DNA of 64,000 bases from Bacteroidota bacterium (lineage in GTDB: Bacteria > Bacteroidota > Bacteroidia > UKL13-3): positions 2,019 to 66,018 of the forward strand of contig CANGPW010000002.1 in assembly GCA_947456185.1 (NCBI GenBank), given 5' to 3'. Position numbers and translations under genes: made by a program. The notes under the pieces are model-generated. The model searched no databases, was not told the origin of the DNA, and was given only the letters and a program-made list of their open reading frames with translations. Of the stretch, positions 1-16,751 are shown piece after piece. Position 1 is the first letter of the stretch. Each line of letters begins with the position of its first letter.

Positions 1-62
1 TATGAAGTATGAATGTTAAAGTTTGAAAAAAATAAAAAAATTCATAATTCATACTTTATACT
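1..62. repeat. word-repeat hairpin (tatgaagtatgaatg ... A-rich spacer ... ttcataattcatactttatactt)
   Basis: Inverted arms 1-15 and 41-62 of the catacttcat word family. May continue left of the window. Confidence 0.7.
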
Positions 63-86
63 TAATAATTAATAAAAAAAAAAAGT

Positions 87-452
87 ATGAATTATGTAAA
101 TGATAATAAACCAGAACCTATTAAGGAAAGGAGCTTTAGATTTGCAGTTGAAATAGTAAAATTCTGTATCGATTTAAAATTATTAAAACATTTTGAAATT
201 GCCAATCAATTAATAAGAACTGGAACATCGATTGGAGCTAATATTCGAGAAGCAAATAATGGTTTTAGTAAAAAGGATTTTGTTTTTAAAATGAGTATTG
301 CCCAAAAAGAAGCTGATGAAACCATATATTGGTTAGAAATAATCAATGAAATTGAAAACAACAACGACAAAACTACTTATCTAATTAAAGAAGCAAACGA
401 ATTACTTAAAATTATCCGATCCATTTCAATCAATGCAAAGAAAAATCTGTAA
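87..452 (+). CDS. four-helix-bundle protein (23S rRNA intervening-sequence protein / Avd-like family)
   Basis: 121-aa ORF. Motifs FRFAVEIVKF, LIRTGTSIGANIREA and KDFVFKMSIAQKEADETIYWLEI fit the S23 IVS four-helix-bundle family as I remember it. Confidence 0.85.
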   Translation: MNYVNDNKPEPIKERSFRFAVEIVKFCIDLKLLKHFEIANQLIRTGTSIGANIREANNGFSKKDFVFKMSIAQKEADETIYWLEIINEIENNNDKTTYLIKEANELLKIIRSISINAKKNL

Positions 453-462
453 AATATTCTTT

Positions 463-509
463 CATAATTTATACTTCATAATTTATACTTCATAATTTAT
501 ACTTCATAA
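463..509 (+). repeat. tandem repeat, 14-nt unit cataatttatactt x3 plus a partial unit
   Basis: Read directly from the sequence. The array ends 1 nt before the DegT ATG. Confidence 0.9.
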
Positions 510-510
510 A

Positions 511-1770
511 ATGAAAATACAAATGGTAGACCTCAAAGGTCAATATAAGAAAATAAAAGCTGAAGTTGATGCTGGAATCCAAGAAGTAATTGAAAATGTT
601 CAATTCATTAAAGGTCCACAAATAAAAGTATTTGAAGAAAACTTGGCAATATACTTAAATGTAAAACATGTAATAAGTTGTGCCAACGGAACTGATGCAT
701 TGCAAATTGCTATGATGGCATTGGATTTAAAACCTGGCGATGAGGTAATTTTACCTGTTTTTACTTACGTTGCCACAGCAGAAGTAATTGCCTTATTGGG
801 TTTAACTCCAGTAATGGTAGATGTGGATCCTGATACATTTTGCATTGATACAAATTTGATTGAATCAAAAATAACGCACAAAACTAAAGCCATCGTTCCT
901 GTACATTTGTTTGGTCAGTGCGCCAATATGGATGAAATCATGCGAATTGCAGATAAGCATAACCTATTTGTTATAGAAGACACTGCTCAAGCTTTGGGAG
1001 CAATTTATAATTATGAAGTAGAAATTATGAAGTATGAAAAAAAAGAAAATACCTTCATTCATAATTCATCATTCATAACTCATACTTATTCGGCAGGAAC
1101 AATAGGAAACATTGGAACCACTTCATTTTTTCCATCAAAAAATCTTGGTTGTTATGGAGATGGTGGAGCATTAATGACCAATGATGATGAGTTAGCAAAA
1201 AAAATCAGGATGATTTGTAACCATGGACAGTCTGTTCAATATGTGCATGATATAATTGGAGTTAACTCAAGGTTAGACAGCATACAAGCAGCAGTGCTAA
1301 ATGCTAAATTACCTCATTTGAAAAGTTATGAAACAGCCAGAAACGAAGCAGCAAATTTGTACGATGAATTATTGAGTAATCATCCAAATATTATTATTCC
1401 AAAACGCTATGCACAAAGTTCGCATGTTTTTCATCAGTACACAATAAAAATTATAAATGATGAATTATTTAATGAAAATAAAAAAATTCATCCTTCATCA
1501 TTACCCAATGTGTCGGAAATTCATACTTCATTCAGAGATAAAATTCGTAAGCATTTAGCGGAACGTAATATTCCAAGTATGGTTTACTACCCAATTGAAT
1601 TAAACAAACAAAAAGCATTTGAAAAATTCAATAGTAATAATGATCAATTCCCTGTTTCAAAAATGCTTTGTAAATCTGTTTTATCATTACCAATGCATAC
1701 TGAAATGAATAAAGATATGGTAGTATACATTTGCAAAAATTTATTGGAAATTATTGACACAGAATTTTAA
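511..1770 (+). CDS. DegT/DnrJ/EryC1/StrS-family PLP-dependent sugar aminotransferase, with two extra in-frame segments
   Basis: 419-aa ORF. Motifs: MVDLKGQY start, CANGTDALQIA, EDTAQALGA, Schiff-base lysine region TTSFFPSKNLG, NHGQ, GVNSRLDSIQAAVL. About 40-50 aa longer than typical family members because of repeat-derived inserts. Confidence 0.9.
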   Translation: MKIQMVDLKGQYKKIKAEVDAGIQEVIENVQFIKGPQIKVFEENLAIYLNVKHVISCANGTDALQIAMMALDLKPGDEVILPVFTYVATAEVIALLGLTPVMVDVDPDTFCIDTNLIESKITHKTKAIVPVHLFGQCANMDEIMRIADKHNLFVIEDTAQALGAIYNYEVEIMKYEKKENTFIHNSSFITHTYSAGTIGNIGTTSFFPSKNLGCYGDGGALMTNDDELAKKIRMICNHGQSVQYVHDIIGVNSRLDSIQAAVLNAKLPHLKSYETARNEAANLYDELLSNHPNIIIPKRYAQSSHVFHQYTIKIINDELFNENKKIHPSSLPNVSEIHTSFRDKIRKHLAERNIPSMVYYPIELNKQKAFEKFNSNNDQFPVSKMLCKSVLSLPMHTEMNKDMVVYICKNLLEIIDTEF

Positions 1771-2109: not shown

Positions 2110-2385
2110 ACATACTTCATCATTCATAAATCTCATATCACACTTCTCATCTCTCAATTCAAAATTTATACTTCATCAATTATAATTAGATTGCTTTCCC
2201 GCTTAGGCTGGACAGGCAGTGCCTCGCAATGACGGGTAAATTTAAATCTTTTTTCATACTTCATCATTCATACTTTCCCAATTTGTTGGGACTTTATACT
2301 TCATAATTTTCAATTCATCATTCCCAAAATTTTAGTCCATTATCGTTTATTTAGGTATTTTTATTTTATAGAAGTTTAACTACAT

Positions 2386-5458: not shown

Positions 5459-5655
5459 TACTTCGAAATACTTTTATACTTTATACTTTCCCGATGTGTC
5501 GGGATTTCATCATTTCTCAGTGCTCATCTCTCATGTCTGGATTCGGCAAGCTCACCAAGACAAAATCTATTCATCTTTACCACTTCATCATTTATACTTC
5601 ATACTTTATAATTCATAATTCATTCTTATCTTGCCAGCCCAATATTTAACATTGA

Positions 5656-16647: not shown

Positions 16648-16751
16648 AGTATAAAGTCCCGACACATCAGGAAAATATAAAGTATAAAGTTTTATGTAAA
16701 TAGAAACAGCCAGTTGCTAGATGTAAAAAAAAATATTGAATGTTAAATGAT

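Follow-up and report, generated by a model that had tools for sequence, protein, structure and literature searches.

The window analysed here is a stretch of 64,000 nucleotides (nt) from a Bacteroidota bacterium (contig CANGPW010000002.1; G000:C2:2019-66018 in our numbering), part of a 2.61-Mb draft genome with 31% GC. Near its start, at 511..1770, lies a gene encoding a WbpE/DegT-type, pyridoxal phosphate (PLP)-dependent sugar aminotransferase of 419 amino acids (aa); all window coordinates refer to the + strand. The open reading frame (ORF) matched PF01041 in one stretch covering profile positions 3-359 of 360 (E 4.5e-110). Its product aligned with the WbpE structure 3nyu (E 1.2e-89) in three separate stretches. 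Query residues 168-197 and 320-341 found no counterpart there, and the host protein therefore contains two extra segments. The first, insert 1, lies at 1009..1092. The second, insert 2, is the subject of this study.

Orthologues of the aminotransferase were present in 40 of the 41 related genomes. The interval between T311 and R342 spans 30 residues in the host protein versus 7 in most orthologues (e.g. LQLKGID). Hence, insert 2 adds a net 23 aa and replaces a loop of about 4 residues, where the first-pass annotation had estimated about 22 extra residues and had parsed the inserted DNA correctly to the base. According to the orthologue alignments, the insert as translated occupies 1453..1533, corresponding to codons I315-F341 (INDELFNENKKIHPSSLPNVSEIHTSF), and its peptide includes the stretch IHPSSLPNVSEIHTSF. 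The segment is in frame and free of stop codons, it leaves the host ORF intact, and it is absent from most orthologues. An AlphaFold2 model built from 87 sequences had a mean predicted local distance difference test (pLDDT) score of 80.7 and a predicted template modelling (pTM) score of 0.83. The strand at residues 310-314 and the helix at 341-351 were modelled with confidence, and pLDDT fell to about 46 for residues 324-337 between them. The low score would be compatible with a tolerated loop of the C-terminal domain between a beta strand and a helix.

Anatomy of insert 2 and its intergenic relatives

Insert 2 is a mosaic of short repeat words. The left arm of a word palindrome lies at 1455..1476 (aaatgatgaattatttaatgaa) and is composed of reverse-complement-type words (aaatgatgaa...aatgaa), which is followed by an A-rich loop at 1477..1486 (aataaaaaaa). 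The same loop is found in an intergenic cassette at window 29-45, to which insert positions 26-42 form an exact match of 17 nt. The right arm at 1487..1502 (ttcatccttcatcatt) contains two TTCATAC-type heptamers (ttcatcc ttcatca tt), which line up without gaps with 12 intergenic modules. Next to it, at 1503..1518, lies a decayed, nested mini-hairpin (acccaatgtgtcggaa, also given as ACCCAATGTGTCGGAA) that agrees with the consensus TCCCGATGTGTCGGGA at 13 of 16 positions. Trailing heptamer words at 1519..1533 (attcatacttcattc; a ttcatac ttcattc) complete the insert and fit the right flank of the intergenic module, (c/t)TTCATACTTCAT. Insert 1 belongs to the same word family and has a better-preserved palindrome.

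The three substitutions in the mini-hairpin (T1A, G5A and G15A relative to the consensus) each hit a different stem pair; three of the six pairs are thereby disrupted, and the loop sequence is intact. In the minimum-energy fold of insert 2 the arms 1455-1476 and 1487-1502 pair with each other, but overall the insert folded no better than shuffled sequences (z -0.16). The palindrome is weak; its arms are still recognisable in the sequence. For comparison, z was -1.8 for the version of the insert in orthologue L103, -2.1 for insert 1 and -4.7 for the intergenic cassette at window 1-66.

A search of the whole genome with the 80-mer of insert 2 gave a top score of 32, whereas 60 dinucleotide shuffles averaged 21.4 and never exceeded 26. 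Matches scoring at least 18 numbered 61, against a shuffle mean of 15. Random 80-mers of the same genome reached a score of 30 at the 95th percentile. The best matches were ungapped, 45-64 nt long and 75-80% identical, and all fell on one type of intergenic module with the consensus TTCATACTTCATACTT-tCCCGATGTGTCGGGa-(c/t)TTCATACTTCAT, of which 12 copies were aligned, including a reverse copy near 16657. The paralogue at 2253..2310 consists of words, TCCCAATTTGTTGGGA at 2276-2291 and further words, with 48/80 ungapped identities to insert 2. The paralogue at 5466..5530 contains an intact TCCCGATGTGTCGGGA at 5489-5504, and its hairpin folds. Only 0.01 matches to TCCCGATGTGTCGGGA with at most three mismatches were expected per window, whereas five were found, including those at 5489-5504 and 16657-16672.

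These comparisons confirmed that insert 2 is repeat-derived and more than an AT-rich loop. They bear out the proposals of the first-pass annotation that the segment is a repeat of the insert-1 word family and that it has a decayed copy of a hairpin found intact in spacers. When coding and intergenic copies were compared as it had suggested, half of the six stem pairs were broken in the coding copy and none at 5489-5504. Similarity to intergenic copies extended beyond AT-richness, as the best genome score exceeded every shuffle.

Words and hairpin belong to different repeat families. The word consensus, a tandem TTCATAC heptamer, is among the frequent 14-mers of the genome, with 57 strict array loci. 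Hairpins of the form CCCGA-N2-6-TCGGG occur at 37 loci, and 0 of the 37 intact copies lie within long ORFs. Their flanking words vary widely and include catactt, caacattcaa, cctattgcc and gttgaagt. The palindrome TCCCGATNNATCGGGA occurs 20 times in this genome. Within the genus, 12 of 15 genomes have 2-34 copies, whereas counts range from 0 to 2 in nine other genera; the pattern reversed as a control had 0 copies everywhere. The palindrome tCCCGATnnATCGGGa is a genus-restricted family separate from the heptamer words. A scan of the window against Rfam at gathering thresholds returned RNase P only, with no match at insert 2.

We also searched the other genes of the genome. At a threshold of 18 matches out of 21 (three heptamers), insert 1 of the aminotransferase was alone in placing an array within a bona fide gene; two other matches were N-terminal read-through of spacer DNA upstream of start codons. 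Relaxing the threshold to 16/21 added nothing but isolated pairs of heptamers that match by chance. Beyond the aminotransferase gene, no bona fide gene in the 2.6-Mb genome contained multi-heptamer arrays or an intact hairpin. In-frame arrays are thus specific to two loops of one gene family and do not reflect a general invasion of genes.

Orthologue series and neighbouring PF05635 genes

Orthologues show the loop of insert 2 in three states. L105 and L034 carry the word cassette of insert 2 without a hairpin (...aaaaaaattcatacttcatcatt|cata|cttcatacttctttc agg gat). L103 has an intact hairpin (...ttcatcatt|TCCCGATATGTCGGGA|attcttacttctttt aga gat; tcccgatatgtcggga), coding FPDMSGI. A decayed hairpin is found in the window and in strain L104 (...ttcatcatt|ACCCAATGTGTCGGAA|attcatacttcattc aga gat). 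The hairpin stands in place of 4 nt, a net gain of 12 nt that keeps the frame and yields the same word-hairpin-word layout as in the intergenic modules. The hairpin is an additional layer nested in the words, which some orthologues have and others lack. The window and L103 have the right flank 'aga gat aaN' in common, where hairpin-less genes have 'agg gat gaN', and this common flank points to what may have been one hairpin acquisition.

Lineages sharing insert 2 are about 82% identical in the DNA of their gene cores, and 63-66% identical at third codon positions. Strain L104, from another sample, has an insert 2 that differs by only 1 nt. Since insert 2 is common to lineages with ~18% core DNA divergence as well as to a near-identical strain, it is old and not a recent strain-level insertion, and it appears to predate the split of several lineages.

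Turnover at the strain level, assessed from near-identical proteins and the contigs that encode them, does exist in the aminotransferase gene, but not at insert 2. Outside insert 1, the gene of L104 is ~99% identical to that in the window (94.9% by blastn over 1615 nt including the cassette). Its insert 1 is a wholly different cassette made of tctcatctccc words, and the PF05635 gene upstream is a different allele with the same tctcatctccc words. When window 1-1100 was compared with L104:2400-3600, the ~490 nt between the PF05635 cassette and insert 1 differed at only 2-3 positions. The density of single-nucleotide polymorphisms climbs right beside the swapped cassette, which suggests short recombination tracts.

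Across relatives, at least 10 unrelated cassette types occupy the same two loops, and cassettes are found in well over half of the sampled orthologues. Among 120 related proteins, the states of the site of insert 2 (site 2) included INDELL...IHTSSF, LRQAQGD, IRNSKKEIRN (either with an IPNNRD hairpin or lacking it), MRYELGGMSEE...HNSYLIP, VKSEELRIKS...LNSSLL, QNPESRIQ and no insert at all. In lineages with AAATTCG words a hairpin (tcccgaataatcggga) is again either present or absent between words.

Several further cassettes deserve mention. At site 2 of L026 (caaattcgaaatgtgaTCCCGAATAATCGGGAcgaaattcgaaat) and of L019, the AAATTCG word stands on both sides of an intact GC palindrome, and hairpin-less relatives (compare L023) have tcaaaaaaa at that spot, again a difference of 12 nt. 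The site-2 peptide LRQAQGD(K/R)NW, seen in L021/L002 and in P0007, P0009, P0012, P0016 and others, is encoded by cttcgacaggctgagggtgaca, which belongs to the genome-wide TTCGACAAGCTCA word family; the 14-mer has 28 copies here. The motifs FDFAQDD and AGPAYAKASA at the site of insert 1 (site 1) look like more spacer repeats read as protein. In L031, site 1 holds ~75 extra residues, with two GC hairpins (ggaggccgacggcctcc, ctcccgaattgctcgggac) between inverted arrays (agaagcgagaggcgag / ctcgattctcgcctctcg). A third insertion site, between the DegT NxP and IPxR motifs, was seen in one family-level relative (L014; G022:C13), where NGNGEGPVTLSRLSVGLSRCQ adds ~22 residues.

The gene next to the aminotransferase offers a candidate source of the words. 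Upstream, at 87-452, lies a gene for a PF05635 protein (23S rRNA intervening sequence (IVS) protein; Pfam E 2.3e-21), enclosed by inverted arrays of TTCATAC-type words at 1-62 and 463-509. Gene and arrays together span 1..509, of which the part 1-66 is the well-folding cassette mentioned above. All eight PF05635 genes in the genome (C8:44286-44603, C70:10849-11166, C5:53530-53844, C43:14900-15187, C8:43477-43788, C2:2141-2437 (window 87-452), C28:10684-10959 and C39:1726-2019 of G000) lie between inverted word arrays, each with its own word. These flank words (gttgtcagttgata, aactaagtactaaaa, cctattgcc, caatcaac, gattacaa, gcggagtgcgaa...) also flank GC palindromes elsewhere in the genome. The inserts of the DegT gene share 35-51% of their 7-mers with neighbouring PF05635 flanks (insert 2, 35%). 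The cassette at 1..509 is likely to represent the source family of the insert words, and the palindromic word cassettes look like gene-less versions of PF05635 stems.

In six of the seven loci compared (L022, L023, L024, L025, L032, L104 and window 1-1092) the word class of insert 1 equalled that of the adjacent PF05635 flanks, an agreement that is only suggestive as it involves few independent contrasts. The site-2 cassette of L024 (atgaggtatgag words) specifically fits the PF05635 flanks of its own locus. The two loops might be standing 'landing pads', at which a templated process linked to the PF05635 (Avd-like four-helix-bundle) cassette beside the gene would overwrite the word-array palindromes again and again, so that the inserts adopt the word of that cassette. 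The 16-nt GC palindrome would then be a mobile module in its own right, very small and nesting within word arrays. The word-class agreement, site 2 of L024, the double difference in L104 and the presence or absence of the hairpin in two word contexts would all fit such a process, but we regard it as a speculative and rather unlikely extension.

Origin of insert 2

We interpret insert 2 as a translated, decaying, two-layer passenger copy of the intergenic repeat DNA of the genus, and assign this interpretation a probability of roughly 0.78. The first layer would be a palindromic TTCATAC-type cassette (arm, A-rich loop, arm) that entered a permissive loop ahead of the divergence of several species-level lineages. 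This is the type of word stem that surrounds every PF05635 gene and of which gene-less examples stand in spacers. As a second layer, the 16-nt GC palindrome tCCCGATnnATCGGGa would later have taken the place of 4 nt inside the right arm, either because an intergenic module recombined with the gene or converted it, or by some other route of insertion. Only the frame-preserving outcome would have survived, with selection filtering frame and stop codons. Subsequently, the hairpin of this genome lost three of its six stem pairs by changes to A, its structure eroding toward A/T.

Several properties of the insert agree with such a history. The absence of a fold above that of shuffled sequences fits a passenger that is kept open for reading but not kept structured. 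In its forward orientation (TTCATAC)n reads TTC ATA CTT CAT ACT TCA TAC and is free of stop codons in all forward frames; the left arm would be more irregular because the reverse word contains TGA. The insert could persist because its words are stop-free, its length is a multiple of three and the loop tolerates very different sequences. Insert 2 is expected to be translated and may be neutral for the enzyme.

A number of observations weigh against this interpretation. The low pLDDT of residues 324-337 is no proof of a disordered surface loop, and both production of the peptide and activity of the enzyme are predictions from the sequence. Insert 2 is 82-90% identical over 51 nt between lineages, above the third positions of the core, although 51-78 nt are too short for a rate test; the insert thus does not obviously vary more freely than the gene, and it may be under a degree of constraint, or have been exchanged recently, instead of being purely neutral. 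A gene tree from which both loops were masked does not group the hairpin-bearing lineages as sisters and requires, for its 87 sequences, 25 or more changes of state at site 2; the tree came from a quick search, is blurred by recombination and contains only metagenome assemblies as relatives. So many changes imply frequent replacement, within-gene recombination, or both. Together with the scattered hairpin-bearing lineages they also mean that a single hairpin acquisition needs recombination within the gene, and independent insertions of the hairpin in different lineages may have taken place. Finally, neither a target-site duplication, nor a link to a transposase, nor a strain-level pair of empty and filled sites was found among the sequences compared.

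A selected function is improbable as an explanation. The peptide might modify the enzyme, through an oligomer contact or regulation, or the palindrome might tune expression of the polysaccharide operon. Such a role would suit the conservation of the insert relative to third codon positions, the persistence of cassettes at two loops in most of the sampled orthologues, and the measurable hairpin potential kept by insert 1 and the L103 version. However, close relatives carry ten or more unrelated cassette types, or none, at the same loop, and insert 2 itself combines a fold indistinguishable from shuffles with a broken GC hairpin and a low-confidence segment in the structural model.

Slightly less probable still is that a mobile mosaic element actively entered coding DNA not long ago, in which case insert 2 would be a young, independent transposition and such events would be ongoing. 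The first-pass annotation had favoured 'active or recent spread' of this kind from the occurrence of two inserts in one gene. Turnover of insert 1 between strains with a 99%-identical gene, hairpin presence and absence among orthologues in two word contexts, and two Y1 transposase genes in the genome speak in its favour. Yet insert 2 is almost unchanged in the near-identical strain and common to lineages ~18% apart in core DNA, its hairpin and palindrome are decayed, a target duplication is lacking, the Y1 genes are not flanked by hairpins, and no other bona fide gene contains arrays or hairpins; for insert 2 the proposed spread into coding DNA is not supported. The evidence shows instead what appear to be two permissive loops of one gene family, repeatedly occupied and overwritten by different cassettes in each lineage.

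Origin in situ, by growth of the loop through slippage under AT pressure so that it resembles spacers by composition alone, is very improbable: in its favour are the high AT content of the region, the capacity of heptamer arrays to lengthen through slippage, and random genome 80-mers that come close to the top score, but the GC-rich 13/16 palindrome match stands in the exact word context of the module, the 45-64-nt alignments beat all shuffles, and an orthologue has the intact hairpin at the same spot.

If insert 2 is such a passenger, it shows that selfish repeats can be read as protein in free-living freshwater Bacteroidota too, a phenomenon for which Rickettsia is the best-known case, and ties it to heptamer word arrays and PF05635 cassettes, which are both poorly understood. 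The hairpin being absent, intact or decayed at one codon position is a rare natural series, which offers a handle on the entry and erosion of very small palindromes and on the tolerance of loops to foreign sequence. It also serves as a warning for annotation, as length variation of the DegT family in these lineages stems from repeats and should not be read as evidence of a different function.

Comparison with known systems

Our literature search found no published description of such inserts in Bacteroidota, but several known systems offer parallels. Rickettsia palindromic elements (RPEs) are in-frame palindromic repeats in Rickettsia genes (Ogata et al. 2000/2002; Claverie and Ogata 2003; PMC3733652, PMC10969869). 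As in RPEs, a palindromic family has copies both between genes and in frame inside an enzyme gene, where it is read as a loop peptide; two inserts are possible in one gene, and copies decay in place. Unlike RPEs, insert 2 measures about 80 nt instead of about 100-150 nt, consists of tandem 7-nt words that vary by lineage, and contains a second small palindrome nested within it. Moreover, the inserts affect one gene instead of dozens, with unrelated cassettes at the same loops in relatives. Membership of an RPE sequence family (RPE-1 to RPE-10) is implausible given the different phylum and the word arrays with 31% GC.

Repetitive extragenic palindromic (REP) sequences occasionally lie inside ORFs, where they encode 20-30 aa (Di Nocera et al. 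2013, PMC3733652), and are associated with REP-associated tyrosine transposases (RAYTs; Bertels and Rainey 2011, PMC3116915). The GC palindrome resembles REPs in being short and GC-rich, with tens of copies that are nearly all intergenic and form mosaics with other motifs, but it is only 16 nt long. We rejected membership of the REP/RAYT system, as the palindrome has no GTAG or CGTC tag and the flanks of the 37 hairpins are T...A followed by variable words. The two PF01797 Y1 (IS200/RAYT-type) transposase genes of the genome (G000:C5:26341-26682 and C59:5710-6054) are stand-alone genes of ~155 aa, with no CCCGA..TCGGG palindrome within about 500 nt on either side. A miniature inverted-repeat transposable element (MITE) was likewise rejected: inverted arms are present, but the sole direct repeat around the insert (ataaaaatt / ataaaatt) belongs to native codons, and L103 and L105 lack it.

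Cyanobacteria reportedly have short tandemly repeated repetitive (STRR) heptamer arrays in their spacers, and hairpins of ~20 nt are said to be nested there precisely inside other repeats. The tandem 7-nt words and nested tiny hairpins described here are alike. The phylum and the sequences differ, however, and the nested pair lies inside an ORF; membership is not definable by sequence.

The closest architecture is that of the IVS in 23S rRNA of Coxiella with its S23p/PF05635 ORF (PMC4990558). Differences are that insert 2 lies inside a protein-coding gene, has no ORF in its loop and has a decayed stem. Its in-frame, stop-free state argues that it would be translated rather than excised by RNase III. 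As in an IVS, a long complementary stem encloses, or has lost, a small gene for a four-helix bundle: every PF05635 gene of this genome (8/8) sits in a stem of word arrays, and insert 2 has the arm-loop-arm organisation in the TTCATAC word type of the neighbouring PF05635 gene.

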